Virus record (IMG/VR): IMGVR_UViG_3300032132_000748
Source: a virus
Taxonomy: Duplodnaviria; Caudoviricetes
DNA length: 64,000 nt
Strand: one strand, 5' to 3'
Under the pieces are notes generated by a model. The model was not told where the DNA came from and ran no database searches. It was given only the letters and a program-made list of their open reading frames with translations. This document shows, piece after piece, positions 2,695-54,996 of the stretch (positions are counted from its first letter, which is position 1; each line of letters opens with the position of its first letter). The position numbers were made by a program, and so were the translations under genes.

Positions 2695-3384
2695 ATGCCC
2701 TTAACCGCTAGTGAACACCAAAAAATTGCAGCTCTACAGCAAATAGCTAATCTAGTTGGGCAAGCACAGAGTGTTGCAGGTAATCCCAACGTTTTAAATA
2801 ACGTAATAAATAATACACTTCCTCTTATTTCTCAATGGGAGAGAAGCGATCCTGAGTTTCAAGAATTAGCAATTCAATTACGGCGTGCTCGGGTTGATAA
2901 AGCTCCACATAACCTAATGAACATAGCTGGGCAAGCTCAGCGAATGATCGCTATGGTTCGTGGCGTCTCTCCTGTGCGTCGCGATTGGGAGGGTGACCCG
3001 GTTGTATGGGATCCTATTCGTGGCAGCGTGAGTAGCCCTATATTCGACCCTAACGAACCAATCACACCTAACACTCACATGGGCTGGCGCGGGTCACAAA
3101 AACATCCCTGGGGTAAGGCTTTCCCTACTAAAAATATGATTGAAGGTCTTGGCGACTATAACGGAGTTATTGGAACTGCCGGAAGTTTGTTCGGAACTCT
3201 TTTCAAAGTAATTGCCCTCTGTTCTGGTTCTGTATTAGCTATTCACGGTTATGAGCGAAATAATCGCTCTCTACCTATGGGTGTTGTTTGGGGTGTCCTA
3301 GGTGGCGCTGCCTGGCCCGTAGGGCTTTTCCTGATGTATCAGCAAGGTTTTGCCGGTAATACTCCAGATTTGTCCATGGCATAG
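2695..3384 (+). CDS. membrane protein, possibly virion-associated
   Basis: GGAG RBS; two C-terminal hydrophobic helices flanking HGYERN. Confidence 0.65.
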   Translation: MPLTASEHQKIAALQQIANLVGQAQSVAGNPNVLNNVINNTLPLISQWERSDPEFQELAIQLRRARVDKAPHNLMNIAGQAQRMIAMVRGVSPVRRDWEGDPVVWDPIRGSVSSPIFDPNEPITPNTHMGWRGSQKHPWGKAFPTKNMIEGLGDYNGVIGTAGSLFGTLFKVIALCSGSVLAIHGYERNNRSLPMGVVWGVLGGAAWPVGLFLMYQQGFAGNTPDLSMA

Positions 3385-3416
3385 ACTACGTAGTTTCAAT
3401 TGCTTATCATCCGAGA

Positions 3417-3887
3417 ATGAATATTCAAATATCTATAGATGCCGCCAGAGCAAATTTTCTTCTAATTACCAAACACTTAGAAGATATTCCCAAAGCAAAA
3501 CAAGGCCAAGTTTTGGAATACTTATCTTTCGGCCTTAAACAACTAGATCATTTAGAAGAGCTTGTTGGATCAAAACCACGAATGGTTAGAGAAAATTTAC
3601 CTTCTAATGAAGAAGTTATGGGTCAGATATGGAATGACATGAATACCACATCCATGTCTGATTATAAAATCATGCTAATGAGGCTTGAACCACATATGAT
3701 GGCGGGTAACAAAATAAATGGTTATCTTGATACACACCATCTTCCTACAACTATTCCAGATATTATAGAGAAGACCGGTATGAAATATGGTGGTGGGAAG
3801 TATCAACTTCGTATTGTTGATGATTCTGGAAAATACGTCAAATCAAAAACTTTTGAAATCTCAGGACTTCCCAAGCTCCCCGAATAA
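3417..3887 (+). CDS. hypothetical protein
   Basis: 156-aa ORF; TAGACT-17nt-TATCAT promoter ending 6 nt before ATG. Confidence 0.7.
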   Translation: MNIQISIDAARANFLLITKHLEDIPKAKQGQVLEYLSFGLKQLDHLEELVGSKPRMVRENLPSNEEVMGQIWNDMNTTSMSDYKIMLMRLEPHMMAGNKINGYLDTHHLPTTIPDIIEKTGMKYGGGKYQLRIVDDSGKYVKSKTFEISGLPKLPE

Positions 3888-4037
3888 TTTAGGGAGTTCT
3901 TCAAAGGTACAACCTCGACAGCCTTTGCCTGCAGAACAATGTTCCTGAAGCTCTTCGAGGGTGGTCAGGGATTTATCTAAAATTATCTGGATAATTTCTT
4001 CTGACGTAACTTGAAAACAATGACAAATGTAGTCCAT
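3861..4037 (-). CDS. BFD-like [2Fe-2S]-binding protein (58 aa, not in ORF track)
   Basis: Manual translation MDYICHCFQVTSEEIIQIILDKSLTTLEELQEHCSAGKGCRGCTFEELPKLFGELGKS: CxC...AGxGCxxC pattern; starts just after the iscS stop. Confidence 0.85.
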   Translation of the reverse strand: MDYICHCFQVTSEEIIQIILDKSLTTLEELQEHCSAGKGCRGCTFEELPKLFGELGKS

Positions 4038-4044
4038 GATGATC

Positions 4045-5160
4045 CTATAGTGTTTTTACCGCGGATATAATTCTTTGCGTAGCTAATAAAATATCATTAG
4101 GCTTGGTAAATCTTCCAGCAGAAATTCTCAAAGTATTTCTAGCGTAGCTTGCAGGCAAACCCATACTCAGCAAAACCTTTGAAGGCGTAGCAGAAGCACA
4201 TCCGCATGCAGAAGCTGTCGAAGCAGCCACTCCCCGTAGATTTCTAATAACTAGTTTTTCATATGGAAATGAAATATTACTTATAACACCGTTCCTTGGA
4301 GCGTCCGACCCATTGATAATTACTTTGGGAATTTTTTTGAGCTGATCTTCCATATGTTTCATTGCTTTACTGATTGGGTTGATCCAAGAAGTATCTTTTA
4401 CGGCAATTTCTAATGCGCGAGCAAAAGCAACTATTAAGGGAACAGCCGTTGTGCCGGAACGGATACCAAATTCCTGACCGCCACCCACTAAAAGCGGACT
4501 TACCTTAAGATCAGGACGAATCCACAAACAACCCACACCTTTTGGCGCGTTAAACTTATGGCCACTAAATGAAGCCATATCTACATATTTTAAAACGTTC
4601 AAAGGTATCTTACCTACCGCTTGAACAGCATCAGTATGTAATAACATGTTATAGCGAGTAGCTATATCCGATATTTTCTTTAATGGCTGAACTACCCCCG
4701 TTTCGTTGTTAACTAACATCACACTAATTAAACTAGCATTTGAATGTCTTGCTAGAGATTCCAGATGATCTACATCAATTAAACCATTTGGAAGAGTTTT
4801 GATTTTTAAAACTTTAATACCCCTATTAAGAATAAATTTTGTAGATTCCTCGATACAAGCGTGTTCGATGGAGCTAACTATGAGAGCACAGTCTTGCTTC
4901 TGCAAGCAGCTTATACCTCGTAGCGCAAGGTTATTAGCCTCTGTCGCACCACTGGTGAAGATGATCCCCTTCGGGGAAAGCCCTAGTAAATCACCTACTC
5001 GTTGTCGAGCAGTCTCAAGAGCTTGTTTCGAAGCTCTTCCATAAGAATGTGTTGTGTTACTGCAATTACCCCAGAATTTCTGTTCGGCAGCCATGTAAAT
5101 TTTCAAGACTTCCGGATGAAGAGGGGTTGCCGCAGCATTATCTAGATATATCTCATCCAT
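4045..5160 (-). CDS. iscS: cysteine desulfurase (IscS/NifS type, PLP-dependent)
   Basis: IYLDNAAATP, FTSGATEANN, HTDAVQAVGK, SGHK (PLP Lys), RSGT, SAC catalytic Cys. Confidence 0.95.
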   Translation of the reverse strand: MDEIYLDNAAATPLHPEVLKIYMAAEQKFWGNCSNTTHSYGRASKQALETARQRVGDLLGLSPKGIIFTSGATEANNLALRGISCLQKQDCALIVSSIEHACIEESTKFILNRGIKVLKIKTLPNGLIDVDHLESLARHSNASLISVMLVNNETGVVQPLKKISDIATRYNMLLHTDAVQAVGKIPLNVLKYVDMASFSGHKFNAPKGVGCLWIRPDLKVSPLLVGGGQEFGIRSGTTAVPLIVAFARALEIAVKDTSWINPISKAMKHMEDQLKKIPKVIINGSDAPRNGVISNISFPYEKLVIRNLRGVAASTASACGCASATPSKVLLSMGLPASYARNTLRISAGRFTKPNDILLATQRIISAVKTL

Positions 5161-5203
5161 AACTATATAATATCATCTTTTACGAACTTGCTATAATAGT
5201 ATC
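5161..5203. promoter_or_regulatory. back-to-back extended -10 promoters for leaderless transcripts
   Basis: TGcTATAAT-6nt-GTG on + (5204) and TGaTATTAT-6nt-ATG on - (5160). Confidence 0.7.
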
Positions 5204-6907
5204 GTGTATGTAGACATTCCCGAAGAGCTAACTTCAGAGTCTTTAGATGATTGGAGTGATGAGGTCAAAGCAGAATTAGATTTATGGATCTTCTCTTTGA
5301 CACTGCATCGAAATGGAGATATTAAATTAGATTCCATAATAGTTAAACCAGATGAGTTGAAACAAGGGAAAGGCACTAAAGCGATGAACCAGCTCATCGA
5401 ATTAGCTGATAGACATCAAAGAAAACTCTGGTTGTCTCCAGGAAAAAAGGACCCTTATCACAAAACAACAAGTCGAGCCAGGCTAGTTAGGTTTTACAAA
5501 AGGTTCGGATTTATAGAGAATAAAGGGAGAAATTTTGGAGGTCATGGAGCTATGTTTAGAAAACCCCATGGAAGAAGAAATCCAGTAGCTCCTTTACCTT
5601 CTGGATTTCAAGATTCTATAGCACTAATGACTTTGAAAGAATTCCTTGATTACAGAAACCCTCGGGGTAAGTGGCATGATGAGGAATCTTACAATTTCGA
5701 CTTAGAAGATATGAATAGAAACTACAAGATTCAACATCTTGAAGACTATAGAACACGTGAAGTAATATTTAGGACTTACCGGAACGGCGATAGTTATCTT
5801 ATCTACTCTGCTGTTGATAGCAGAGATAGATTTAAACTTGTAGCTATTATATATGAAAATACACTTTATTATGAAAAACCTTCTCTTGTTTGGCGACTAC
5901 CAGGTGGTTATCGAGATTCTAATGACTCTTGGGTATCATTCAACATTTCTGAAAAGAAACGAATAAAGTATCTAGATGAGATGTTAGAACTAATTAACAA
6001 TATCAAGCAGGAAAATCTTGATAGGTACCCTTACCTACACCAAAGAATAAGATTACAGGGAGAGTCTTTTCAGATTAGATTTGAAAAACAGCCAGAGCAT
6101 GATGCCGGAACAATTATAGCTGTCCTAAACTCCGAAGGACAAGCAGTAGCTAAAGCCCAACCAGAGTGGGGCGCAACACTAGTAGTAGTAGCTCAGGAAT
6201 ATCGAGGCAGAGGTTTAGGACCCATCATCAGCCAACTCTGGTATGACTGGAATCCAGGCTACCCATCAGGAGGTTTTACTGGCTCGGGACTAAACAACGC
6301 AACAAGAACTTGGGAGAACGCCGTTCGGTTATACCGATCTAAGGGCTGGTATTCAGAGCTGCTCAAACAAGGACATATATCCAAAGAGCGCCTCAAAGAA
6401 ATTTTTGGAAAATTATCTAAAAAGTCCCCACCTAAAAAAAGAATAATTTCCCAGGAAAAGAAGGTATTAATTTACGTTGAACGGGATACAGAACATGGGC
6501 ATCCTGAATGGGGACCAACTTTTGCTATATACGACGAAGCCTTCCTAACTGAGCCAGATGAAAAACATATCTACGGATTTGGTTTCTTCCGAAATAATCG
6601 CGCTGGAACATATCTCTTTGCGATCGATTACGAAAGAGAGTTCGACAAAATCACTACGTATGTCGCTCTCCAGATAGCGAGAAACAATAATGAGAAAATA
6701 TATGCCGGAAATGATTACGGAGCAGATATATTAGAGCTCTCCAATTTAAATCACGTTCAAGTTGAGGAAGATTATGCATATCTTACAGAAGATGTTCTGA
6801 ACTTAGAACTATTTCGGAATGTAGAACGTAGGCTAAGAAATCTGAAGGATCCTCTGGGAGAAAAATACCATTTATTGCTAGAGATGGCTCATACCAAATG
6901 GTTGTAA
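5204..6907 (+). CDS. multidomain protein with two GNAT-like acetyltransferase domains
   Basis: KQGKGTKAM...RLVRFYKRFGF and VAQEYRGRGLG acetyl-CoA-binding motifs; RRNP after the first domain. Confidence 0.7.
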   Translation: MYVDIPEELTSESLDDWSDEVKAELDLWIFSLTLHRNGDIKLDSIIVKPDELKQGKGTKAMNQLIELADRHQRKLWLSPGKKDPYHKTTSRARLVRFYKRFGFIENKGRNFGGHGAMFRKPHGRRNPVAPLPSGFQDSIALMTLKEFLDYRNPRGKWHDEESYNFDLEDMNRNYKIQHLEDYRTREVIFRTYRNGDSYLIYSAVDSRDRFKLVAIIYENTLYYEKPSLVWRLPGGYRDSNDSWVSFNISEKKRIKYLDEMLELINNIKQENLDRYPYLHQRIRLQGESFQIRFEKQPEHDAGTIIAVLNSEGQAVAKAQPEWGATLVVVAQEYRGRGLGPIISQLWYDWNPGYPSGGFTGSGLNNATRTWENAVRLYRSKGWYSELLKQGHISKERLKEIFGKLSKKSPPKKRIISQEKKVLIYVERDTEHGHPEWGPTFAIYDEAFLTEPDEKHIYGFGFFRNNRAGTYLFAIDYEREFDKITTYVALQIARNNNEKIYAGNDYGADILELSNLNHVQVEEDYAYLTEDVLNLELFRNVERRLRNLKDPLGEKYHLLLEMAHTKWL

Positions 6908-8820: not shown

Positions 8821-10047
8821 ATGCATAGAAAAGATCATCTCCGAGAACTTATCAAAACCGGAAAAAGTCAACAAGAACAAAATGAAGCTCATATCAAAAG
8901 ATATGAAGAAGAATTAAAAGAAATAAAACAAAAGGAGACACGACTCCCCAGCCCAAAGCTAACTGAGCTTCGCCAAACCTTACAGAGAAACCCAGGCTCT
9001 TTTAAAATCCGTCAGGAATTAACAATCCAGGCACTCGAAGAAGAGAACGGAACCTTTGTTGCTTGGCGTGGTGGGGAGGGAACCCCTCCAGAGGCACAGT
9101 TTGTTGAAATCGAGCAACCACTATTTAATTCAGAAAATGTTTTAGATAATCCTCCGATTGTTAAACAACATTTTCACGTTCTCTCTGTATTGGATAATAT
9201 TAATGATTTGAAGGGTTTGTTGGATGTAGTTCAACCGGATTGCATGATTACGCTGCCCCAGCACGATTTGCACTACTTCTCTGAGTTTCAGACGGAACCT
9301 ACTACATATGTAGTAGAAGGATCTGACGTTCCAGTAGAGAATCTAGTTCCTTTTAATCATAAATCGGATAATATATCAGATAAGATTAATTTAGCTGGTG
9401 AAACAGCCGGAGAAACTACCATTGGAGGTAGAACAAAAGGGCTTCTTCAAAGAATTTATCAACCCTTGTATGATACTAATACAGTAGCCACTTCGGGATC
9501 GGGTCAACTAAACTTTTTCCAGGTTCCTTTAGGTGGAAGAATAGCAGGAAGCACTACGCCTAAAACTCAAGTTGATACCAATATGGATCAAGGGGGGAGT
9601 CTTCCTTATCCAAAGAACTTCAAAGTAACTGGAATAAGTGTTATACCGGACGCTTCTGCTAGCTATGAAGACGCAGCAAAGGTGCTTGACGGATCCTGGT
9701 TCCGACTATTTATCGGGACACAGGACTATTACGTGTCTCCTACGCTCCCTCTAGCCTTTGCTCCCGGTAAGCGTAGTCCTGGTATGAGCTTCAGAGTAAA
9801 CAACCCCTTGCGACCCGTTTACTGTTTTCCAGAGCCTATTAGCTTGATTCCCCAGCAAAATTTCCGGGTAGAGCTTAATTTCCCGAAACCTTTTACTAAA
9901 GATAACGCTCTTAGTGAACCTTTACGTATCCGTGTAGTTCTTCATGGATATTTCTATCGAGAAGTTATGGAGATGTTTAAGAGTTTAAAAGCTTTTGATT
10001 ACAGCAGCCAACGTTTAGGTTCCTACGAAGCTGAATCTAAGTTGTAA
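8821..10047 (+). CDS. coiled-coil N-terminus fused to a putative jelly-roll capsid-like domain
   Basis: C-half QPLYDT...FFQVPLG...KTQVDTNM...GSLP.PKNFKVTGI...PQQNFRVELNF...RVVLHGYFYR is beta-rich; capsid-like call is from recall only. Confidence 0.5.
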   Translation: MHRKDHLRELIKTGKSQQEQNEAHIKRYEEELKEIKQKETRLPSPKLTELRQTLQRNPGSFKIRQELTIQALEEENGTFVAWRGGEGTPPEAQFVEIEQPLFNSENVLDNPPIVKQHFHVLSVLDNINDLKGLLDVVQPDCMITLPQHDLHYFSEFQTEPTTYVVEGSDVPVENLVPFNHKSDNISDKINLAGETAGETTIGGRTKGLLQRIYQPLYDTNTVATSGSGQLNFFQVPLGGRIAGSTTPKTQVDTNMDQGGSLPYPKNFKVTGISVIPDASASYEDAAKVLDGSWFRLFIGTQDYYVSPTLPLAFAPGKRSPGMSFRVNNPLRPVYCFPEPISLIPQQNFRVELNFPKPFTKDNALSEPLRIRVVLHGYFYREVMEMFKSLKAFDYSSQRLGSYEAESKL

Positions 10048-10076
10048 TTCCTAGACATATCTAATATCATTTAGAT

Positions 10077-10720: not shown

Positions 10721-12718
10721 ATGAGTGCAGTAACCCTACACCTAGCAGGTGATAAACTATTAATATCCTTCGATTATAATGAAACAATTGTTTCAAAATT
10801 GAAGAGAATCCCTGGTTGCCGCTGGAAGAAAACCCTAGGTAGGTGGGAAGCCCCTTTAGCAAACTATAGTAGAATCGTTGATTCACTGAATAATGTTATA
10901 GTGTCTACTGCTGTGATGAAACGTCTTGCTGACGAAGCAGCCTTAACACGTAAGGTTGAGATATTAAAAGCAAAAACCTATCATGAACTAGAAGACTACT
11001 CTCCCAAAGTTCCTTTAATGTCCCACCAGAAAAAAGCATTCGAGTTACATCGTATGTTAAAAGGTAGCGGTAACTTCGGGGAAATGGGCTCTGGCAAAAC
11101 GGCATCAGCTATTTGTTCAATTCATTGGCATATAGAGACCGGAAATATCGAAAACGCACTAGTTGTTTGTCCTAAATCAGTTCTCCGGGGCTGGGAAGAA
11201 CAAATTGAGTTCTTTTCTGACCTAAGTTTTATCTCTTTGGTAGGGACTAAACCCGAAAGAATAAGAAAATTAGGACTAAAGAAAGATATTTACCTAATTA
11301 ACTACGCTGGAGCCCGAATTATGGAGGAAGTCCTCCTCGAAAAGGGCTTTAATATGGTAATTACGGACGAAGCTCACCGAATTAAGAACCCACAATCAAA
11401 ACAAAGTAAGGCTTGTTACAACTTAGCAGACAAAGCGGAGTGGAAAATTGCTCTGACGGGCTCCCCTGTATTGAATACAGCACTAGATGCCTTCGGAGTC
11501 ATGCGTTTTATTGATCCAACTGTCTTCGGAGAGAGCTTTTTCGCCTTTCGTAACAAGTATTTTAAGAATGTTGGACCAGAAAACTCACCAATTCAAATTT
11601 ATATACCGCAAGGTGGTGCGGAAAAGGTAATTTCAGACAAGTTAGATACCAGATCGATACGTGTTCTTAAAGATGAGTGTATGGATTTGCCTGTTGCGGT
11701 CCACTTACCTAACAGAATTGTATACTTAAGCCCACAACAAGACCGAGTTTATCGAGATTTGCAAGAAAACTTAGCTGCACAGCTTAGTGAAAACAAATCT
11801 ATTAAAATTAATCACGTATTAACTTTAATGTTGAAGCTTAACCAAATCACTTCTGGTTGGTATAAGGACTCAGATACCGGTGAAATTACACACTTCAAGA
11901 CAAATCCCAAGTTTAATGCCCTAAAAGAGGTAGTAACGGACGCCGGTGAGCAAGCAATTATCATTTGGGCCTACTACAAGGAGGATATGAAGCTAATAAC
12001 TAACTATTACGGACGTTGTCAGAAGTGTAAAGAGTCTGTAAATTTAGTTGGTGGCGAAAAATGTCCCAAATGCCACACTGTAATTAAAAACAGATGTTCA
12101 GAAGTGCAGGGTTCGACTAAAAGAAGAAACGCAGAAATAGCTAGATTCAGATTTACTCCAGAAGAAAGAGCAAAATTACGCGCTAGATTCATAGAAGAGG
12201 GGATGAAAGCGACTGAAATTAGAGATGAACTAGGAGATTTATTAGACGATGGTAGTGAACCCCCACAAAGTAATATATTTGCAGCACAAGTTACCGCAGC
12301 TTCTGAGGGCCTTAACCTTCAACGAAGCACTATGTCCGTCTTTTATAGTCGAAACTGGTCACTAAAAGACTGGGTTCAAGCTCTGGCTAGAAATCACCGT
12401 AAGGGACAAACAAAGAAGGTGACCTACGTTAACCTCGTAGCCCAAATGCAGAGCGGTGACCCTACTGTTGACCAACGTATCGTTGATGCCCTCACTAAAA
12501 AGGAAAATCTCTCTAAAAGGATCAACAAAGACGATATCAAGTTGCTAACTGGAAATTACAAAAAGAAAAATCGGGAAGCTTTTAAGGATATTGTCATTGA
12601 AGAGGAGAAAAAAGAGATGGATCGCCCTAAGCAAGAAGACGACCCATCGGACAACGGCGAAGCCCCTCCTGAGTTTACAGCACCCTCTGAGCCTCCCACA
12701 CAAGGAGGTCTGTTCTAA
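10721..12718 (+). CDS. SNF2-family helicase/ATPase with HARP-like N-terminus and Zn-ribbon insertion
   Basis: GEMGSGKT, DEAH, LTGSP, EGLNLQ, QALARNHRKGQ motifs; CQKC...CPKC insert. Confidence 0.9.
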   Translation: MSAVTLHLAGDKLLISFDYNETIVSKLKRIPGCRWKKTLGRWEAPLANYSRIVDSLNNVIVSTAVMKRLADEAALTRKVEILKAKTYHELEDYSPKVPLMSHQKKAFELHRMLKGSGNFGEMGSGKTASAICSIHWHIETGNIENALVVCPKSVLRGWEEQIEFFSDLSFISLVGTKPERIRKLGLKKDIYLINYAGARIMEEVLLEKGFNMVITDEAHRIKNPQSKQSKACYNLADKAEWKIALTGSPVLNTALDAFGVMRFIDPTVFGESFFAFRNKYFKNVGPENSPIQIYIPQGGAEKVISDKLDTRSIRVLKDECMDLPVAVHLPNRIVYLSPQQDRVYRDLQENLAAQLSENKSIKINHVLTLMLKLNQITSGWYKDSDTGEITHFKTNPKFNALKEVVTDAGEQAIIIWAYYKEDMKLITNYYGRCQKCKESVNLVGGEKCPKCHTVIKNRCSEVQGSTKRRNAEIARFRFTPEERAKLRARFIEEGMKATEIRDELGDLLDDGSEPPQSNIFAAQVTAASEGLNLQRSTMSVFYSRNWSLKDWVQALARNHRKGQTKKVTYVNLVAQMQSGDPTVDQRIVDALTKKENLSKRINKDDIKLLTGNYKKKNREAFKDIVIEEEKKEMDRPKQEDDPSDNGEAPPEFTAPSEPPTQGGLF

Positions 12719-13146
12719 TGAATTGTGGATGTGATTACTGCACAGAAAAGATCTGTGAGCTAGAAGAGTTATTTAAGACTAATAAAAATATCTATAAAAT
12801 CGATATTAGTAGAACGGTAAACGTCACTCTTACCTCAAAAAAGGAATTAACCGAACAAGAACGAAATGAAATATATGAATTAGAAGGTAAAGCCGTCTCA
12901 TATCTATCAATAGACGGCTTAGATTTTCGTCTTAAAGCTCCCCCAAAAAAACCTTTGAGCCGTCTCTATCCTGAGAAACAAATTTCAATAGCAGATTACT
13001 ATAAACATACACCAAAAGGCTGCCTCAGATGCATCAAACTTCTAAGCAGAGGGGCGCAACCTGAGCGACTAGGGACACAAATTTGCGGATGTCTTTGGCA
13101 AATTAACGATGAACAATCAATAATATATAAACGAAAATCAAAATGA
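12718..13146 (+). CDS. hypothetical Cys-rich protein
   Basis: TAATG coupling; CGCDYC and CxxC...CGCLW. Confidence 0.65.
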   Translation: MNCGCDYCTEKICELEELFKTNKNIYKIDISRTVNVTLTSKKELTEQERNEIYELEGKAVSYLSIDGLDFRLKAPPKKPLSRLYPEKQISIADYYKHTPKGCLRCIKLLSRGAQPERLGTQICGCLWQINDEQSIIYKRKSK

Positions 13147-13328
13147 CTGAACAGCTTACCTCCCGAGGCCAAACCCAAGATGGCCTTACCTTTACCTGCC
13201 CCCGCCACGGAAAACAAGGATTCCATTCTATGTCCTGGGCATTACCTGAATACACTGGAATTCAATTAACTTGTGGTTGCTTTTGGCGAGCAAACAAAGA
13301 CGGGTCCTTAACCCATAGAAGAGTATAG
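13143..13328 (+). CDS. small Zn-ribbon-like protein
   Basis: ATGA overlap; CPRH...CGCFW. Confidence 0.6.
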   Translation: MTEQLTSRGQTQDGLTFTCPRHGKQGFHSMSWALPEYTGIQLTCGCFWRANKDGSLTHRRV

Positions 13329-13633
13329 TGAATAACAAAGAAGAAATTATAGAAGCCTTAATTCACGGACGTTTACGCGAAGTAAATAAGCGTTGGCCTA
13401 AAATTTTTGGGAAAAATAAATTCCAAGAGTTTGAACGATGGATAGCGACCCAAAAAGATGAAGAGCTAATTACAATAACTTTTAATCTAGGCGGTCAAAC
13501 TACCAATAACCAGATGGAAAACTATAGTTGCATCCTTTCCGGCTCACCCGTCTACCAAAATGGATGTATCGAAGTTTCGGGGATGAGTTTTTCACCCTCG
13601 TCGAATTTCCCCTTTGGCTATCTTTTTTCTTAG
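13328..13633 (+). CDS. hypothetical protein
   Basis: TAGTG stop/start overlap. Confidence 0.55.
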   Translation: MNNKEEIIEALIHGRLREVNKRWPKIFGKNKFQEFERWIATQKDEELITITFNLGGQTTNNQMENYSCILSGSPVYQNGCIEVSGMSFSPSSNFPFGYLFS

Positions 13634-13644
13634 AGGATTTTAAA

Positions 13645-13968
13645 ATGATGTGTCCCGAATGCGGAACCCAGGATGCCCAACAATTACTACTAACTATTCG
13701 CTGCTCTAATAATAAATGCAAACACTATGATGTTAAGCACGAAATACAAGTAACTAAGAACCGGCTTGCAGAGGTGGATAAACAAATTACTAGTTTAGAG
13801 AAACAAAAAAAGGTTTTAAAGAGTCATCTCCAAAATCTAGGCGGGTTAGTAGTAGAAGATCCTTTTGATTCAGCCATAAAAGCTTATTTACAAAGAAAAC
13901 TTCAGATAGATATGGTCCAAGAACTTAACGGAGTATTAATAGAGAAATCCATATCTTTCACTTCCTAG
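13645..13968 (+). CDS. Zn-finger/coiled-coil hypothetical protein
   Basis: GAGG RBS before ATG 13645; CPEC...CSNNKC. Confidence 0.6.
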   Translation: MMCPECGTQDAQQLLLTIRCSNNKCKHYDVKHEIQVTKNRLAEVDKQITSLEKQKKVLKSHLQNLGGLVVEDPFDSAIKAYLQRKLQIDMVQELNGVLIEKSISFTS

Positions 13969-14630
13969 CGCAACTATCTCATCAATATTTGGAATCAACT
14001 TATAGGTTTCTAAACTATTTAATTTTGAGTTACTCGGATCTAGCAGTTCTGATATTCTTGGGCTGTAGTGAGGTTCTACTCCTACAAACTCAAATAACTC
14101 TTGAACCATTTCGAGGCTTTTTGGTAATGATCGATAAAGATCTCATAAAAAATGTTTAAATGAGATAACTGGTTATCCTGAATATACTTGTCATACTGGA
14201 CAAAGGATACCTCTCTTCTTTTCAGGTCAGCTTTAAAGGATTTTATATCAATTTTATGATATTTATGGTTCTTGACTACAGATCGATCAGTATCCCAGTG
14301 TTTTGATTGGCGAGATATGGAATGAGATAGGACTCCCTGTAGATGGTTTTTTCTTCGAAGCACAATTATAACTTCTGCTGATGAGAGAATTCTTTTATTT
14401 GCTTCAAGGGAGCCTTGACCTACAAGGTGCTTGAACCCGTTACACTCAGACCACAATTCTTTCAAACCTTTTTTTGTTAAAGAATATTGCTTTATCTGGT
14501 ATTTCCTGGTATGTCTACCTTTGTTAAAGGGCTCCCCTATTAGTTTAAGTTGGGGATGTGATCCCATAACACGAACTAAAGTGGACGACCCACTTCTAGG
14601 CTGCCCAAAAATGATAAAACGTTTACTCAT
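13936..14630 (-). pseudogene. sulfotransferase (Stf0-like) with a single-base frameshift near 14142
   Basis: GQPRSGSS PAPS-binding motif, GEPFN, LRRKN; the C-terminus (DLY...LFEFVGV...IPNIDEI...GFLY) continues in the -1 frame to a stop at 13936. Confidence 0.75.
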
Positions 14631-14672
14631 TACAACAGTATACCTTAGATTGTCGCATACAGTCCATAACCA

Positions 14673-14717
14673 TTGCCCACATCATCTTCCCTGCAATAAT
14701 AAGGTAGGGAAGATAAA
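14673..14717 (+). promoter_or_regulatory. promoter inside an RBS-sequestering inverted repeat
   Basis: ATCTTCCCT (14684-92) / AGGGAAGAT (14706-14) flank a -10-like box; TTGCCC upstream. Confidence 0.6.
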
Positions 14718-15374
14718 ATGCTTAAACAGAGTAAGAAAAAAGTAAAAACATTTGTTAAATTTTTACGAAATAAGTTGTTGTTAGAGGGGCTCTCCAAGCC
14801 CTATATCCATTCAATGGATGATGATACTGTTCTCGATAGCTTTAGAAAATGTGCTGATTGTGACGAAGTGATCTGCACTAAAGATCAACAAATGCATGCT
14901 ATTCTTGAGTTTGATACCCCAGAACGGGTTTTTGAGGTCCTTTACGAGGAAGATCAACCCCATGACTCATCAGAAGATGAAAACGATGAAGACGAAGGCG
15001 AGGAATATGAAGATATCAAGCAAATCAATTTCAATTTTGAAGATCTAGAACTAACAGATCTAGCCGAACTTGACCTAGACGAAGATGAGGCGGAACTAGT
15101 AGATGAGATTTGTGAAGGTTGTTTCGACGCTATCGTGAAACATTTTGGTGAAGAAGATGATGGCCCTTCTGGTGCGCATAAAGCTATTGATGACGCAGAG
15201 GATGAGGAAATAGTCCGAGGAAAATGGATTCTTGATGGAACCACAACCATGACCCAAATGATTGACAACTTAGAAAACTTTATAGAATATATGAAGAAGC
15301 TAAGAGAGTCTGGTTTCGAATTAGCCCACCCAATAGAGGACGATTATGGATACCTTATCAAAAGAAAAGGATAG
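14718..15374 (+). CDS. acidic hypothetical protein
   Basis: 218-aa ORF with D/E-rich centre and RBS. Confidence 0.7.
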   Translation: MLKQSKKKVKTFVKFLRNKLLLEGLSKPYIHSMDDDTVLDSFRKCADCDEVICTKDQQMHAILEFDTPERVFEVLYEEDQPHDSSEDENDEDEGEEYEDIKQINFNFEDLELTDLAELDLDEDEAELVDEICEGCFDAIVKHFGEEDDGPSGAHKAIDDAEDEEIVRGKWILDGTTTMTQMIDNLENFIEYMKKLRESGFELAHPIEDDYGYLIKRKG

Positions 15375-15684
15375 TGGAGCAACTCCAATACTCTCAAAGG
15401 AGGCTCTTTGCCAAGAATGCGGGACGGGGTTAGACGCTAACTGTAATAAAATTTATGGAATGTGGCTGTGTGACTCTTGTGAGAATAGTCAGGTTACTAA
15501 AGCCGTAGTTGTTGCTTATACCAATTACAAAGGCACTACCGCAGTCCGATCAATCATCCCCAAAACAATTTATTTTGGCTCAAATGAGTGGCATAAGGAG
15601 CCCCAGTGGCTTCTAACGGCTTTTGATTTGGACAAAAATGCAGATAGGCACTTTGCTATGGCGGATATCCATAGCTGGCAATAA
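15346..15684 (+). CDS. Zn-finger plus WYL-like domain protein
   Basis: CxxC...CxxC then YTNYKG...R.I.P...WLL.AFDLDKNADRHF. Confidence 0.7.
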   Translation: MDTLSKEKDSGATPILSKEALCQECGTGLDANCNKIYGMWLCDSCENSQVTKAVVVAYTNYKGTTAVRSIIPKTIYFGSNEWHKEPQWLLTAFDLDKNADRHFAMADIHSWQ

Positions 15685-15686
15685 CT

Positions 15687-16640
15687 ATGCTCAAACACAT
15701 AATAAAATCACAACAATTTAGTCCTGAAGAAATTCAGAAACTATTTCTACGTACTGCTCAAATGCAGCAACAGTTCATTAATCCTGTAGGAAGAACTGTG
15801 TTAAGACAAAGTTTCTTAACTAATAAATTGTTGTTTAACATTTTTTACGAACCTTCAACAAGAACTAGGTTTAGCTTTGCAGCCGCTGCCAACCATCTAG
15901 GTATGCAAGTAGTTGATACCGAAGCTGCTAATCATTTCTCGTCTGTGACGAAGGGCGAGACACTAGAAGATACGATAAAAGTTCTCTGTCAGTATTATCC
16001 CGATGCAATTGTTTTAAGGCACGATCAAACTGGCGCAGCCGAGCGTGCAGCGGCAGTAAGTAATTGCCCTATTATCAATGCTGGAGACGGAAAAGGGCAG
16101 CATCCCACACAGGCACTTCTTGATTTATATACTGTCTGGAAGCGGTTAAAAACTCTTAACGGTCTGACAATTCTAGTTGGGGGTGATCTTGCCCATGGAC
16201 GTACTGTGCGCTCCTTGGTTTATTTATTTTCCAAGTTCCAAGGAACTCAATTTATATTCTGTTCTCCAGAACAACTGAGAATGCTACCAGACATTAAAGA
16301 ACACTTGGAAGAAAATAACATAGTTTACACGGAAGTTTTTGAGAATGCTAACAAGGTTCTCCCTTTAGCTGATGTTGTCTATTGGACACGGGTTCAAGCC
16401 GAGCGAATTGAGGATCCAAACTTGGATCCCGAAGAACTTAGAAAACAATTTGTAATAAACACAGAGAGTATGGCTTTCATGAAACCATATTCTGTATTAA
16501 TGCACCCACTGCCTCGGGTTGGTGAAATTACTACCGACTGCGACCGAGATGTTAGGGCTGCTTATTTTGAACAAGCAGGTAATGGCATGTTTGTTCGGAT
16601 GGCTCTACTAGAGAACATACTTAAAAAAGACGGCATTTAA
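15687..16640 (+). CDS. pyrB: aspartate carbamoyltransferase catalytic subunit
   Basis: FYEPSTRTRFSF, KGETLEDT, NAGDG..HPTQALLD, MHPLPR. Confidence 0.95.
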   Translation: MLKHIIKSQQFSPEEIQKLFLRTAQMQQQFINPVGRTVLRQSFLTNKLLFNIFYEPSTRTRFSFAAAANHLGMQVVDTEAANHFSSVTKGETLEDTIKVLCQYYPDAIVLRHDQTGAAERAAAVSNCPIINAGDGKGQHPTQALLDLYTVWKRLKTLNGLTILVGGDLAHGRTVRSLVYLFSKFQGTQFIFCSPEQLRMLPDIKEHLEENNIVYTEVFENANKVLPLADVVYWTRVQAERIEDPNLDPEELRKQFVINTESMAFMKPYSVLMHPLPRVGEITTDCDRDVRAAYFEQAGNGMFVRMALLENILKKDGI

Positions 16641-17020
16641 TGAAATACACTAGAAAACTTAAAAAGAAAAAGAAACGAAGAATAGTTCCACCACAACAAT
16701 TAACTTTGTGGCCTTCGCTTACTACAACACCCGCCCCTTTAATTAGTGGTATAGGTTCAGCTATCCCTGCGAGAGGGGCAGATATCACCTTTTCTCCAGG
16801 TAAAGGCGAGAAAGGGATGCGCGATGGCAAGATCGGATTTAATGACGGCGATGGTGATGAGATTCTTTCCATCAATTCTGATAAAACCATTACAATTCTT
16901 GGAGAAACTTTTGACCTTCAAGAAGTCAAATCTTGGCTAGCTAAAACCTTTAAGTCCGGTGGATGCCAGTGCTCCTTAAAACAAATTATGAGCCAGGGGT
17001 GTGGTTGTGGCGGTAACTAA
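16640..17020 (+). CDS. hypothetical protein with C-terminal Cys4 tag
   Basis: ends CQCSLKQIMSQGCGCGGN. Confidence 0.75.
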   Translation: MKYTRKLKKKKKRRIVPPQQLTLWPSLTTTPAPLISGIGSAIPARGADITFSPGKGEKGMRDGKIGFNDGDGDEILSINSDKTITILGETFDLQEVKSWLAKTFKSGGCQCSLKQIMSQGCGCGGN

Positions 17021-17321
17021 AAAACTTCATAAACTTGAAGACGTACTAGACATAGTGGATCAATTATTAGCTGATGGTAAGATTGAAGAAGCTAATGCTA
17101 CTATCGATGACATTATGGATGCTCTCGGTGACAATGGCATAGACTTAATTAAAAAAGCAAAAGCTTTAGACGCAGAAAAAGACAAAACAAAAAAGGCCAA
17201 GCTGGCCAGAGAACTCAATATAGAGATGACTAAAGCAATTGTTGAAAAACTTGGTTTAGATAAATGTTCGTGTACAAGTGAAACTATATTTACTAAAGGA
17301 TGTATTTGTGGAGGAAAATAA
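17001..17321 (+). CDS. hypothetical helical protein with C-terminal Cys4 tag
   Basis: ends CSCTSETIFTKGCICGGK. Confidence 0.75.
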   Translation: MVVAVTKKLHKLEDVLDIVDQLLADGKIEEANATIDDIMDALGDNGIDLIKKAKALDAEKDKTKKAKLARELNIEMTKAIVEKLGLDKCSCTSETIFTKGCICGGK

Positions 17322-17526
17322 AGTATCAGCGGCTGAGTGGAAGGAGTTTATTTTAAATTACTATCTCCATAAATTAGAGCATATTCTCGAAGATGACCAA
17401 TATGTGATGGGCTCGGAATCTTCTGAAACCTTTGAAGAAAGGGTTTTTGATGAAGAAATTGACTACGACCAAATCACATTTAAGATCCACGATCAAATCA
17501 TGGAAAAAATCAGAGAAATATCATGA
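17278..17526 (+). CDS. small acidic hypothetical protein (start uncertain)
   Basis: fills the gap in a coupled gene run; ATGA overlap with the next gene. Confidence 0.55.
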   Translation: MKLYLLKDVFVEENKVSAAEWKEFILNYYLHKLEHILEDDQYVMGSESSETFEERVFDEEIDYDQITFKIHDQIMEKIREIS

Positions 17527-17912
17527 CCGTAAACGTTGAAGAAGAGGCCAAACGCTTTTGGCGGGAAATGAAGTTCAACAATATTTGTTGCAACGATAAA
17601 GATTGTAAAATGGATGTTGATCTAGTTGATGACAAAGTCGAAGTTAGCCTGGTTAAGCACAACTACGTTGTAACGATTCATAGAATTGAATCCATGGCAG
17701 GTATGGTCAACGTCAAAGATCCAGCTAAGTGGTGGGAAAGTGTAGGGACACTCTCCCACTCTCAAAATGAACTTAATTTTTGGAATAGGGTGGCCGAACT
17801 CTATCAAAAAATTCCTTTATGGATGTTTGAGTTCGAACTAGACGGGGATCACGCCTGTATCTGCGAAACAACTACTATAGTAGCTCAGGGCTGCCAGTGT
17901 GGAGGAATTTAA
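17523..17912 (+). CDS. hypothetical protein with C-terminal Cys4 tag
   Basis: ends CICETTTIVAQGCQCGGI. Confidence 0.75.
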   Translation: MTVNVEEEAKRFWREMKFNNICCNDKDCKMDVDLVDDKVEVSLVKHNYVVTIHRIESMAGMVNVKDPAKWWESVGTLSHSQNELNFWNRVAELYQKIPLWMFEFELDGDHACICETTTIVAQGCQCGGI

Positions 17913-19055: not shown

Positions 19056-19057
19056 AT

Positions 19058-21452: not shown

Positions 21453-21491
21453 AAGGTTTAAAAATAGTTTTTAGATAGTAATATAGTAGGT

Positions 21492-46225: not shown

Positions 46226-48679
46226 ATGTTCGATCGTTTTACGATAACAGCACGAAAAGTGATGCGACTGGCTCGAACCGAATGCTCAACATTTAAGCAT
46301 GGTTTCATAGGCACAGAGCATTTCCTTTTAGGATTGCTTAGGGAAGATAAAAGTATTGCAGCCGCCGTCCTCAGGACGATGGGTGTAACAGCAGACAAAG
46401 TTATCAAAGAGATTGAGATTGAGCCCTCAAATACACCACCCATGGGAGTCATCCCTTTTACCAAAAGAGCAAAACAAACTCTTGAGGCGGCTGTCGAAGA
46501 AGCGGCTCATCTACGACACAACTATATTGGCCCAGAGCACATCCTGCTAGGGCTATTAGATGACGAGAATGGTGCTGCCGTTCAAATTCTACTCAAAATG
46601 AATGTCGATATTGATGACGTAAGAAGCGAAGTACTTGAGCTTATTACAGAGACAGTGACTACGGCAGAGGATGAGGAAGAAGAAAAGACCGTAGACGCCA
46701 CCAAAAAGAAAGCAAAAGCGAAAAAAGGTAAGAGTGCTCTAGATCAGTTTGGTAGAGATCTTACAAAGTATGCTGCTGATGGAAAACTGGACCCAGTCAT
46801 TGGTCGTAAGGATGAAATAGAAAGAGTACTACTAGTCCTAGCACGTAGAAATAAGAATAATCCAATTCTTCTTGGAGAACCTGGGGTCGGAAAGACTGCC
46901 ATTGTTGAGGGTATCGCCCAACAAATCATAAACGGAAAAGCACCAGAAATGTTAGACGGTCACAGACTCATTGCATTAGACTTGGCAGCTATGGTTGCGG
47001 GCACTAAATACCGAGGCCAGTTTGAGGAAAGAATTAAAGCCGTCATGGCAGAGGCTACTAAAGAGAAAATTATTCTCTTCATTGACGAAATTCATACTCT
47101 AGTTGGGGCTGGAGGGGCTGAAGGCGCTATTGATGCAGCTAATGTCCTTAAACCAGCACTTTCTCGGGGAGAAATACGATGCATCGGAGCCACTACGCTT
47201 GATGAGTATAGAAAATCTCTAGAGAAAGATGGGGCTCTAGCGCGACGTTTCCAAAAAGTGATAGTTGACCCGCCGTCTGTAGAACAAGCAGAGCAGATTT
47301 TGCTAGGTGTGATTAATAAATATGAGGCACACCACAAAGTTAAATACTCTAAGGAAGCACTAAAGACAGCAGTAAATCTCGCTGATCGATATATCACAGC
47401 TAGATTCTTACCAGATAAAGCTCTGGACGTTATTGATGAAGCTGGTGCCAGAGTTGTTCTGGAAAAACACCGACCTAAAAAGTTGGCAGATGCAGAACTT
47501 GATCTTGAAACACTTGAGAAATCAAAAATTAATGCAGTTGCTGATCAAGAATTTGAGGAGGCTGCTTCCATCCGCGATAAAATCGAAAAGCTAGAAGAGA
47601 GTATTAAGCAACTAAAGCTTACTTGGAAACAAGAAAATAAAAAGAAACCCGTTGTTACTAAAAAATTGATCGCAAGAACAATTTCTAAAATGACGGGAAT
47701 TCCTCTCGAAAGTTTAAGTGCTTCTGAGACGGAAAAACTTCTCAAGCTAGAATCTCATCTTGGCAAAATAGTTATTGGACAAACTAAAGCCAAAGAGCAG
47801 CTTGCGAAATCTCTTCGTAAAGCCCGAGCGGGTCTTGGTGACCCAAATCGGCCAATGGGCACCTACTTATTCGTCGGACCAACTGGTGTTGGTAAAACAC
47901 TACTAGCTAAAGCTATGGCTAAGACTATTTTTGATTCGGAAGAAGCATTGATCACCATGGATATGTCTGAGTATTCAGAAAAAATCAATGTATCAAGATT
48001 GGTCGGAAGTGCCCCTGGATATGTAGGATACGAGGAAGGCGGCCAACTAACGGAGGCAGTCAGAAGAAAGCCTTATTCAGTTGTTCTTTTTGACGAAATC
48101 GAAAAAGCTCACCCGGAAGTATTTAATATTCTTCTTCAAATAATGGAAGATGGCAAGTTGACTGATTCTCAAGGAAGAAAGGTTAATTTCAAAAATACTG
48201 TTATCATACTTACTAGTAATGTTGGTAGTAGCGCTATCATAAATAAATCTTCCCTAGGTTTTGGTGGAGGTAGTGAAACGTCTGAAGAAATGATTGAAAA
48301 ACAGATAAGTGAAGATCTAAATAGAACCTTCAAACCCGAATTTTTGAATAGATTAGACGCAAAAGTTATCTTTACTCAACTAACTAAGGATGAGCTATAC
48401 GAGGTTCTGGATCTTGAACTCCATAAGGTTATTAAGAGACTCCAAGAAAAAGGCCGAACATTGGAGCTTAGTCCTGCAGCGAAAGACTTCTTACTAGATA
48501 AAGGTTACAACCCTGAATATGGCGCACGTCCGCTTAGACGTGCGGTAGGTACTTATGTTGAAGACCTTCTTGCTGAGGAAATATTAAAGGGAGCTTTCCC
48601 GGATAATGAGAAGATTCTCTTGGATAGAAATCCTGAAGATGATCACCTATTTGCCTGTAATATAGTTCTTGAAGCTTAG
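46226..48679 (+). CDS. clpC: ClpC-type AAA+ unfoldase (Clp-N repeats, two ATPase domains, UVR coil, LGF loop)
   Basis: [44 protein letters not shown]. Confidence 0.95.
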
Positions 48680-53277: not shown

Positions 53278-53575
53278 TAAAGCTGAAAGTTTACTTACTT
53301 TTGAAAAAAAGTATCCAGTTTTAATCAAAAGAGCCTTGATATACAAAGATAAAATCATTGTATGGTCTCTTTGTGATAGAAGTCTTTTAGCTAAAAGATG
53401 GAGGAGCATCTCTCAGATTAAAATGAGAATAATGCCTCTCAAACCCCTGGAGGGCGGAGAAACACAACAGATATGGAATCATATCTGGGATATTTCCAAA
53501 CCCTTGTCTCTGGGTCCAGAGAAAGTTAAGTTACATGTGAGGATGTATGACGGTATTAGTTGGCGCGATTCATAA
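53228..53575 (+). CDS. hypothetical basic protein (start uncertain)
   Basis: overlapping run between 53020 and 53547. Confidence 0.5.
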   Translation: MIRFSWKHIINMPKRNSKAESLLTFEKKYPVLIKRALIYKDKIIVWSLCDRSLLAKRWRSISQIKMRIMPLKPLEGGETQQIWNHIWDISKPLSLGPEKVKLHVRMYDGISWRDS

Positions 53576-54164
53576 GGGTTATGCCTATATTGGGGCAGAC
53601 TCTCTTTGGTCTTGGGATGAAAATTTTGTTAGAGAAAGCAAAACAAGCAAATTTTTAAATTTGAAACCTGTTAAATTTGTTTCAGATGAGGGATTAGAGA
53701 CTTTTACGAGAGATCTTTCTGAAGAGGTTTTAATAGCAAGTTCTGGTCAAGATAGATTTACTCAAATTTTAGAAAAAGTAATAATAGAAAACCCTGAATT
53801 AGCCTGTTTCACCGATAAAGCCGGAGTAATTGAATTAGCAGAAACATACCACAAAGCAGTCACTAAGCTCGGGGTTGGTGATTCAGATAACAATCAACTT
53901 CCGGATCACGATATGGGATTTCTATTAATCTCTAAATACAGTGATAGAATATGGACTTTGGAATCTGACTATTCCATTGGTGAATATGATGATTATGTTA
54001 GCGGAGGTTCTGGCAGCTTTTTGGCAGAGGCTGCTATGAGGGCTCAAAGTAAGCGAGGTCTGCACGGAGAAGAAGCGGTTTTGACTGCAATTGAAACCGT
54101 TAATGAATTGCACCCCTACTGCGGCGGGCGAATCGAAATTAGAAAAATTAAAATAGAAAAATAA
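53547..54164 (+). CDS. HslV/proteasome-beta-like Ntn-hydrolase protease
   Basis: N-terminal M-T nucleophile, IGADS, K, GSGS..A.AA, A....P..GG.I. Confidence 0.8.
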   Translation: MTVLVGAIHKGYAYIGADSLWSWDENFVRESKTSKFLNLKPVKFVSDEGLETFTRDLSEEVLIASSGQDRFTQILEKVIIENPELACFTDKAGVIELAETYHKAVTKLGVGDSDNNQLPDHDMGFLLISKYSDRIWTLESDYSIGEYDDYVSGGSGSFLAEAAMRAQSKRGLHGEEAVLTAIETVNELHPYCGGRIEIRKIKIEK

Positions 54165-54234
54165 ATTCCTAGTGTCCTAGGGGCGGCTACCTGTCGGACC
54201 CACTTGGTATCCTTAAGACACAAGGACAGAGATT

Positions 54235-54444
54235 ATGACAATGACAACAGCAAAAGAGCCAATTGAATTTTACGATGTAAAATACAAAGAGAAGATTAAA
54301 GTAGCAAGAAGTAAGTGCAGTTTGGAAGTTTTTCAAACTAAACGAGGACAAAGGACTCGTATCGTTGCCGTTATGAAGAGCAAGGACGATCCAGCCAAGG
54401 AGTATAAAATTTCGAGACTGTGCGCTAAAGACTTCGTTCTTTAG
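54235..54444 (+). CDS. small basic DNA-binding protein, Cc1-like
   Basis: EFYDVK.K...QTKRG...AV......KISRL resembles crenarchaeal chromatin protein Cc1 (recall); strong terminator follows. Confidence 0.55.
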   Translation: MTMTTAKEPIEFYDVKYKEKIKVARSKCSLEVFQTKRGQRTRIVAVMKSKDDPAKEYKISRLCAKDFVL

Positions 54445-54464
54445 TAATTCCTACTATAAGGCTT

Positions 54465-54497
54465 AAGAGAACCCGGATTCGTCCGGGTTCTTTTTTT
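54465..54497 (+). terminator. intrinsic terminator
   Basis: AGAACCCGGA-TTCG-TCCGGGTTCT followed by a T run. Confidence 0.92.
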
Positions 54498-54996
54498 ATG
54501 CCCATATTCCACTAGAGAGATTAGAGGACCTATGAGTCGGAACCGAAGTGGTGTCTGTTGTGAGTGTTTCATAGAGTTCTGGCCACATCTTGTAAAGAAA
54601 ATAACCGGAAGACACCATAGTTATATAGCTAATAAAGGGTATGTGTCTTCCCACAGCTAAGGTTATCACGAAGGGTGACATATTAGCCAATCCCATAGGA
54701 AGAATATACTTATCTGCTTTATAGAGCATACGCCCTACTAGTGGCATATCTTTTTCATCTACCCTCTTAAGTAATGAAAAACGTTTTAAGTATATTTTCG
54801 CCCCAACCGTCATACCTAGTGTGATCATTAAACCAATAATATTTTTAATCTTCTCCCAACCAGTAATTTTTTCAAACGCACCTAAATCTCCGAAAGTTGG
54901 ATTTATGGCTTTCCGTAATATGGGATAATGAGGAACTACCCCAGGCAATTTCACCGATGCAAACCCGTCATATGCTCCAAAACCGATACTCTTCAT
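54496..54996 (-). CDS. membrane protein, possibly virion-associated
   Basis: 2-3 hydrophobic segments; GFGAY/DLGAF motifs; leaderless promoter. Confidence 0.65.
   Translation of the reverse strand: MKSIGFGAYDGFASVKLPGVVPHYPILRKAINPTFGDLGAFEKITGWEKIKNIIGLMITLGMTVGAKIYLKRFSLLKRVDEKDMPLVGRMLYKADKYILPMGLANMSPFVITLAVGRHIPFISYITMVSSGYFLYKMWPELYETLTTDTTSVPTHRSSNLSSGIWA

Follow-up and report, generated by a model that had tools for sequence, protein, structure and literature searches.

Jelly-roll shell-type and penton-like proteins on an 858,992-bp contig suggest a giant relative of tailless, membrane-containing viruses

Results

Genomic setting

The window, meaning the whole 64-kb stretch of DNA analyzed here, is a piece of ENA contig k141_839137 (858,992 bp), in which it corresponds to record positions of about 117,264–181,263, reversed. 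Another assembly, 859,269 bp long, contained the same proteins, and relatives were identified on contigs of 599,739, 236,164, 204,035, 91,110, and 79,068 bp. Including neighboring sequence, 109,071 bp (12.7% of the contig) were examined. Megablast of the window against phage records returned zero matches, and neither exact-pattern nor protein searches located the window in IMG/VR. Genes were tightly packed and co-directional, with Shine-Dalgarno-like motifs upstream of 22 of 41 starts versus a background of 20%. All members of the repertoire proposed from the sequence alone (IscS-like, PyrB, ClpC-like, and RNR) were confirmed. The polymerase in the examined 109 kb belonged to family A (PolA), with at most 29% identity to any phage PolA, and comparisons of PolA and ClpC revealed affinity to no phage group. 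For the ORF starting at 5204 (ORFs are named here by their first position in the window), the best-matching relatives came from Atu_ph07 and SCTP-2, both tailed jumbo phages.

A penton-like gene and adjacent fiber genes

Genes for an SNF2 helicase, a small protein, and PyrB (10721–16640, + strand; Pfam and PHROG matches) lie upstream of a gene encoding a penton-like (vertex) protein of 211 aa (21492–22127, + strand). The SNF2-small gene-PyrB order was kept in the relative contigs L004–L006, and in the window approximately 15 small ORFs (16640–21452) are inserted between PyrB and 21492. The AlphaFold2 model of 21492 (pLDDT 79.8) consists of an N-terminal helix (residues 7–33) joined by a flexible linker to a single jelly roll of 8 strands (residues 63–200), and is a close and specific structural match to a sphaerolipovirus penton (corner) protein, with a helix that may reach the membrane. 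Self-association of 21492 was also predicted. At the sequence level, tblastn against phages gave chance-level matches only, a scan of GTDB genomes found zero members of the penton family, and zero were found in SSIP-1, a cultured tailless membrane phage, or in small contigs carrying related modules.

The next genes encode a fiber-anchor protein (22220–23017, + strand), which over its first ~110 aa bears a remote likeness to cement/decoration proteins of phage heads, and a collagen-repeat protein of 3072 aa (23017–32235, + strand; 36 Pfam Collagen stretches, 1105 bits), a candidate surface or vertex fiber along whose gene GC and GC skew are raised. The anchor matched Phage_cement_2 (PF09956), a family known from tailed-phage heads, with E values of 4e-4 to 1e-3 (20–21 bits against a cut-off of 24), and all 3 copies of the anchor module matched this family below or near the cut-off (best E 2e-5). 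An extra copy lies in a 607-aa protein (L003 18246–20069, − strand), and in the relative L004 a single gene immediately following the penton-like gene joins the module to collagen repeats. Further downstream, 4 modular paralogs of 266, 238, 192, and 379 aa (32240–35543, + strand), candidate fiber or spike accessories, have N-terminal (33043 and 34404, E 9e-17) or C-terminal (32240 and 33762, E 1e-10) modules in common, and their only family match, an Ig-like stretch of 34404, was sub-threshold (E 8e-4). The anchor, collagen protein, and paralogs would probably form vertex or surface fibers, a role suggested for 23017 by its adjacency to the penton-like and anchor genes. What had been described as a 15-kb structural block is one 9.2-kb collagen gene, the anchor gene, and 4 paralogs, for which a structural role is presumed.

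A capsid family with tandem shell-type genes

The 408-aa protein 8821 (8821–10047, + strand) carries a ~200-aa N-terminal extension (coiled-coil/disordered), a single jelly roll at residues ~205–385, and a C-terminal helix. Residues 196–408 were modeled by AlphaFold2 as a jelly roll with a pLDDT of 86.9. The sequence-only reading had pointed to beta-sandwich folds in the C-terminal half of 8821 and in 21492, and had counted models without a jelly roll as a sign against it; both proteins were modeled specifically as jelly rolls. The LYDT...FF..P.G...KT..DTNM...G.LP signature in 8821 marks a family with 336 representative proteins, most of them stand-alone proteins of 170–230 aa. Its proposed occurrence in small uncultured viruses was borne out, as the family was found on contigs of 18.5–48 kb and weakly in SSIP-1. 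The companion signature HGY.RN, as written, matched the membrane protein 2695, and the C-terminal motif of the capsid family is instead [HD]G[YF]F[YK]RE.

On the same contig, ~19–20 kb upstream of the window, are tandem capsid-family genes encoding 189 and 185 aa (L016 12903–14144; family profile E about 1e-119). At least 2 adjacent small single-jelly-roll capsid-type genes are present, with the paralogous domain of 8821 modeled as a jelly roll, and the shell-type genes are scattered across >40 kb among core genes. Searches beyond the clade were largely negative: tblastn of 8821 against phages and the A2 profile against PDB and Pfam gave zero matches, the capsid-family scan of GTDB genomes returned one 50-aa fragment only, and no PHROG family could be matched to the proteins of the capsid family, the penton family, or the operon.

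A morphogenesis operon linked to SSIP-1

The tandem genes are the last of a co-directional 14-gene operon that includes a Transglut_core gene. Its product is homologous to SSIP-1 gp34, an annotated structural protein (E 5e-11, and E 2.4e-19 through L017), which provides sequence homology to a virion protein of a cultured tailless, membrane-containing virus. Transglut_core homologs also precede 1–3 capsid-family genes in uncultured contigs of 18.5 kb, 23.9 kb, and 39–48 kb, the 18.5-kb contig also encoding a protein-primed PolB. In what appears to be a bacterial chromosome, a distant cluster of Transglut_core and capsid-family genes has sigma-54 activator and OmpA-type genes as neighbors. A 156-aa protein of the window (3417–3887, + strand) has a ~100-aa domain in common with a 933-aa protein of the upstream morphogenesis operon (L015 4333–7134, − strand; phmmer E 7.5e-45).

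Among the 57 SSIP-1 proteins, the top 2 hhalign matches of the capsid-family profile were the adjacent structural proteins gp46, ranked first, and gp45. The gp46 alignment spanned 135–140 columns with colinear motifs (P about 1e-3), at a weak probability of 20–23%. Hmmsearch of SSIP-1 ORFs with the A1 and A2 HMMs and with an HMM widened to 240 sequences gave zero matches. A phmmer match between P0187 and gp46 (E 5.9e-4) failed correction for 202 queries and was rejected.

Membrane proteins and sequence motifs

Protein 2695 (2695–3384, + strand) has 2 C-terminal hydrophobic helices (hydropathy segments 158–176 and 195–214), zero family matches, and a conserved homolog within the clade (L004, E 3.5e-75), and it may reside in the virion membrane. 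The small hydrophobic protein 54496 (54496–54996, − strand) contains hydrophobic stretches along with motifs of the GFG and DLG types. Both had been proposed as membrane proteins; the helices of 2695 were clear, whereas 54496 fell below the same hydropathy threshold. GLG/GFG/DLG motifs, taken earlier as a pointer to a tailless membrane virus, are present in the window but not enriched (5 observed versus 6.6 ± 2.6 expected from shuffled sequence), which counts against that reading, and the RRNP motifs are present but occur only twice (5204 and 8191).

Packaging and tail genes

As the sequence-only reading had stated, families for terminase, portal, HK97 capsid, sheath, tape measure, and baseplate were all missing among ~60 window ORFs scanned with Pfam and/or PHROGs, and TerL, portal, HK97 capsid, and tail families were likewise absent from the 109,071 bp examined. 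Phage-structural hints in the window were sub-threshold only: Phage_cement_2 (22220), Ig-like (34404), and DUF7307 "Pam3 gp33-like" (48766). An FtsK/HerA/A32 (PRD1 P9) packaging ATPase was also absent from the same 12.7% of the contig, within which Walker A motifs were found only in SNF2 helicase, ClpC-like, MoxR-like AAA, and DUF3854 proteins. The SSIP-1 ATPase gp40 had no detectable relative in the giant-contig clade, the search returning only 3 close relatives, all from small contigs. Double-jelly-roll capsid, A32 ATPase, and family B polymerase matches were absent from the 109 kb.

Discussion

We lean toward reading the 858,992-bp contig as the genome of a giant SSIP-1-like or sphaerolipovirus-like virus with vertical single-jelly-roll shell proteins. 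We infer that these proteins are the principal shell components of a tailless, membrane-containing virus infecting a bacterium. The proposal of a tailless, membrane-containing jelly-roll virus made from the sequence alone gains from the modeled jelly rolls, the gp34 homolog, the syntenic tandem genes, and the occurrence of the module in small contigs; its argument from glycine motifs did not hold. In such a particle, genes of the SSIP-1/sphaerolipovirus kind would supply shell proteins that cover an internal membrane, with the 189- and 185-aa proteins as the 2 main shell proteins and 8821 as their paralog, its N-terminal extension facing inward. Protein 8821 would probably occupy special lattice positions or act as an organizer of a very large lattice. 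Copies of 21492, as the putative penton (5-fold vertex) protein, may form a ring in which neighboring copies contact each other at an asymmetric interface, with their N-terminal helices directed inward to the membrane, like VP9 of HCIV-1/HHIV-2.

SSIP-1 resembles the giant contig in having a gp34-type Transglut_core gene upstream of adjacent capsid-type genes of ~200 aa and in encoding a structural protein of great length, gp43, whose 2319 aa may be set beside the 3072 aa of the collagen protein. It differs in genome size (43.8 kb versus 859 kb), in its halophilic lifestyle and gene repertoire, in the gp40 ATPase, in the absence of a 21492-like protein by sequence, and in capsid proteins that are alike at the motif level only (hhalign probability about 20%). 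Three of these points, namely the missing packaging ATPase, the restricted distribution of the penton family, and the weak relation of the capsid family to gp46, count against the SSIP-1-like reading. The archaeal Sphaerolipoviridae HHIV-2 and HCIV-1 (about 30 kb, pseudo T=28; PDB 6h82, 6h9c) have zero sequence similarity to the contig, which is almost 30 times larger and probably has a bacterial host, and their 2-barrel "tall" VP4-like capsid protein and packaging ATPase were not found in the 109 kb. The capsid protein of Sulfolobus polyhedral virus 1 (SPV1, Portogloboviridae; PDB 6oj0) exceeded unrelated jelly rolls by a Z margin of only about 1, and this archaeal virus, with a genome of about 20 kb, has its jelly roll oriented otherwise in the shell. 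PRD1, whose capsid protein is a double jelly roll and whose genome spans 15 kb, combines the penton P31 with the spike P5, which bears a collagen-like stretch; we take the order of a penton gene followed by a Gly-X-Y-repeat fiber gene to be a likeness of arrangement only. PRD1 P5 and P3 were among the weak fold matches.

A tailed jumbo phage was initially the leading reading, held with high confidence, and was dropped as such on the fold and synteny results. We now regard as unlikely a tailed megaphage (Caudoviricetes) with TerL, portal, HK97, and tail genes outside the 109 kb, in which a giant HK97 capsid would bear the jelly rolls as decoration, cement, vertex accessories, or fiber parts. 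Tailed phages of the huge and jumbo classes (the clades of Al-Shayeb et al. 2020; Agrobacterium phage Atu_ph07, Salicola phage SCTP-2) are comparable in genome scale, in carrying RNR, PolA, ClpC-like, methylase, and metabolic genes, in one common protein family (phrog_29287, 34–36% identity), and in the cement-like fiber anchor. The relatives of ORF 5204 and the remote kinship of the anchor to Phage_cement_2 count against the SSIP-1-like reading. Against these likenesses stand the lack of tailed-phage hallmark genes in the 109 kb, structural proteins of the tailless jelly-roll kind, and the low PolA identity.

It is improbable that the jelly-roll module is something other than the capsid of this genome, such as a small particle or compartment of its own, a module that was domesticated or came from a satellite, or a broken-up integrated SSIP-1-like virus. 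The apparently chromosomal cluster suggests that the module need not always make an infectious virion, which also counts against the SSIP-1-like reading, and a packaging ATPase is absent beside the module in both the giant (109 kb) and the small contigs. The dispersal of shell-type genes among core genes, and the place that the penton-like gene keeps by SNF2 and PyrB in relatives, argue against a recently inserted element, and the strong conservation suggests a central role. A giant eukaryote virus, a huge plasmid-like element, or a mis-assembly is very unlikely: protist giant viruses commonly have collagen-repeat proteins and large repertoires of genes, and the contigs are known from metagenome assemblies only, but the 2 assemblies are nearly equal in length, the genes are tightly packed and co-directional with Shine-Dalgarno-like signals, the polymerase is of family A rather than B, double-jelly-roll capsid and A32 matches are lacking in the 109 kb, and the closest matches in structure are to bacterial and archaeal viruses.

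The largest phage genome known is 735 kb, which 0.86 Mb would exceed. For the giant SSIP-1-like virus that we favor, the window contributes the vertex protein and adjacent fiber genes to the nearby shell genes. Should the rest of the contig prove free of tailed-phage genes, no other virus with a tailless, membrane-lined jelly-roll build would come close to it in size. Giant genomes have been described only in tailed (HK97) viruses and double-jelly-roll eukaryote viruses, other realms remaining below about 60 kb (2026 review, PMC13598248), a pattern that a 0.86-Mb virus with a single-jelly-roll shell would break. At slightly short of an even chance, we further propose that the contigs represent a prokaryote-infecting, tailless, membrane-lined SSIP-1-like clade with genomes of 0.2 to 0.86 Mb, and with it a third independent origin of viral gigantism. 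Scaling from SSIP-1, the shell would be roughly 200–250 nm across and its triangulation number would run into the hundreds, yet its assembly would not use the double jelly rolls of giant eukaryote viruses. Such a virus would raise the questions of how so large a lattice is measured and closed, for which the long-armed paralog 8821 is a candidate organizer, and of how nearly 1 Mb of DNA would be loaded into a membrane-lined shell with no recognizable packaging motor.

Placement of the window on an 859-kb contig

By identity matching, the window was placed on the ENA metagenome contig ERZ27248692:k141_839137 (858,992 bp), in reverse orientation, such that position w of the window is position 181,264 - w of the record. 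The same proteins are also encoded on another assembly, 859,269 bp long, so the contig is probably a real, near-complete molecule. We read record positions 98,809-207,879 (109,071 bp, 12.7% of the contig), and the absences reported for the contig apply to these 109 kb. No match to the window was found in the IMG/VR search or among phage records. The window has a GC content of approximately 39-41%, with tightly packed genes running mostly in one direction, and no tRNA gene was identified in its 64 kb.

Capsid-family operon and probable relation to SSIP-1

We identified 14 codirectional genes that end in the tandem capsid-family pair, with products of 353, 933, 106, 241 (Transglut_core), 346, 110, 71, 215, 119, 54, 301, 317, 189, and 185 aa. 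The 241-aa Transglut_core protein is homologous (E 5e-11) to gp34 of SSIP-1, annotated in GenBank as a structural protein. SSIP-1 is a cultured phage with a membrane, PRD1-type architecture, and 2 types of capsid protein (PMC6356626). Transglut_core homologues also lie upstream of capsid-family genes in 3 uncultured contigs, including an 18.5-kb contig (L010) that further encodes a protein-primed family B polymerase, a 23.9-kb contig (L012/L013), and a 39-48-kb contig (L017) with 3 tandem capsid-family genes; no tailed-phage families were found on these 3 contigs.

When the capsid-family profile was compared with all 57 SSIP-1 proteins by hhalign, the top 2 were gp46 and gp45, which are adjacent structural proteins. 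The gp46 alignment covered 135-140 columns with colinear motifs (P ~1e-3, hhalign probability 20-23%), and that of gp45 covered the C-terminal motif only. Wider capsid-family profiles gave no match to SSIP-1 by hmmsearch, and one phmmer match to SSIP-1 did not survive multiple-query correction. The capsid-family sequences are thus weakly suggestive of a relation to gp46 and gp45, and most of the weight of the putative SSIP-1 link is carried by transglutaminase homology and gene order.

A 108-aa protein with 2 hydrophobic helices (38809-39135) weakly matched SSIP-1 ORF 49 (E 0.002). A 27.5-kb Logan contig (SRR28289898; L020 7304-18488) carries a distant cluster of a Transglut_core gene and a capsid-family gene (301 aa), flanked by 2 sigma-54 activator genes and OmpA/peptidoglycan-binding genes; this resembles either a provirus or a module domesticated in the chromosome of a Gram-negative bacterium, and may hint at hosts of the capsid family. 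In the Gaiellaceae contig DATJOZ010000123.1 (L014 10001-10150), from an actinobacterial GTDB MAG with 70% GC, a stretch of 50 residues shares 74% identity with the N-terminal end of the 185-aa capsid family, and the remainder of the gene is missing, so the fragment could be a relic, chimera, or contaminant.

Gene repertoire and host signals

Gene identities were assigned from Pfam and PHROGs. The jumbo-phage-like repertoire proposed in the sequence-only reading was borne out, with both RNR subunits, a ClpC-like ATPase (46226-48679), PyrB (start 15687), and an IscS-like aminotransferase (4045-5160, minus strand). The window further encodes an SNF2 helicase (10721-12718, 665 aa), a MOSC-domain protein, several methyltransferases, a DprA/SLOG-like protein, an HD-domain protein, a dual-specificity phosphatase, a glycosyltransferase-methyltransferase fusion, a 921-aa protein with a DUF3854 domain and a PD-(D/E)XK nuclease, and a MoxR-like AAA protein with its DUF2201 partner. 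A family A DNA polymerase is encoded just downstream; no affinity to any phage group was found for PolA or the ClpC-like protein.

The SNF2 helicase of the window has no intein; that of the relative on a 236-kb contig (L004 4939-8463, 1174 aa) contains one with a LAGLIDADG endonuclease. Near the ClpC-like ATPase, a 205-aa protein (53547-54164) has a weak proteasome/HslV-like match (E 8.5e-4), and the 2 may form a predicted virus-encoded proteolysis pair. Downstream of the window (L019 12084-20555; record ~98.8-107.3 kb), we identified SpoVR, 2 PrkA-type AAA kinases, and a Ro60/TROVE-vWA gene, which are stress-response and RNA-quality-control genes unusual for a virus. Approximately 15 small ORFs between PyrB and the penton-like gene (16640-21452) form an insertion relative to L004, and a Cys-rich C-terminal tail is common to several small proteins (16640, 17523, 18786, 39396, and 60631).

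Of 41 start codons, 22 have a Shine-Dalgarno-like motif 5' to them (background, 20%), which fits a prokaryotic host. In genes lacking such a motif, a TATAAT-like box often lies 6-8 bases 5' of the start codon (5190-5203, 34390-34403, 21478-21491, and 10063-10076), suggesting leaderless transcripts.

Search for tailed-phage genes, putative fiber anchor, and competing readings

The earlier observation that 64 kb lacked tailed-phage structural genes held over the 109 kb read, where Pfam and PHROGs identified no terminase, portal, HK97 capsid, sheath, tape-measure, or baseplate family. This 12.7% of the contig also yielded no packaging ATPase, whether of the terminase or of the FtsK/HerA/A32 type, with Walker A motifs confined to the SNF2 helicase, ClpC-like, MoxR-like AAA, and DUF3854 proteins. 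No relative of the SSIP-1 ATPase gp40 was detectable in the clade, nor any P-loop protein in the parts of the small contigs read. Of the 2 proteins proposed as membrane proteins, ORF 2695 contains 2 hydrophobic helices, and a relative carries a conserved copy, whereas the membrane character of ORF 54496 is less clear. The argument from glycine motifs gained no support, as the window shows no enrichment (5 observed vs 6.6 +/- 2.6 in shuffles).

An initial interpretation as a tailed jumbo phage rested on ORF 5204, which shares 34-36% identity with Atu_ph07 and SCTP-2 proteins. This ORF (5204-6907) is bipartite, its N-terminal ~110 aa resembling DarB/PLxRFG-type phage proteins (phrog_10691) and its C-terminal 430 aa being the part common to the 2 jumbo phages (phrog_29287). 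The strongest point in the window against a tailless virus is the putative fiber anchor. Directly 3' of the penton-like gene lie 22220 (265 aa) and a protein of 3072 aa containing 36 stretches of collagen repeats, followed by 4 genes that have N- or C-terminal modules in common. The N-terminal module of 22220 is joined straight to collagen repeats in L004, and a further copy is part of a downstream protein of 607 aa, making the module a putative reusable anchor. All 3 copies match Phage_cement_2, a family known from tailed-phage heads, with scores close to the cut-off or under it (best E 2e-5). This likeness, the lack of a packaging ATPase in the 109 kb, and the coverage of 12.7% of the contig count against the tailless reading, and the main rival is a tailed megaphage with jelly-roll accessories. 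We nevertheless consider it unlikely, since a VP9-like penton protein, a strongly conserved capsid-family pair, and an operon of the SSIP-1 type would not readily be accounted for as HK97-head decorations.

It is quite improbable that the jelly-roll module is noncapsid or satellite-derived; the penton-like, capsid-family, and operon genes are interspersed with core genes and have been retained throughout a clade whose contigs span 0.2-0.86 Mb. Other readings are less probable still. We lean, by a modest preference, toward a giant SSIP-1-like jelly-roll virus. Prokaryotic viruses that are both giant and of the single-jelly-roll type were not described in the literature that we searched, and according to a 2026 review, viral gigantism is confined to 2 realms (PMC13598248).
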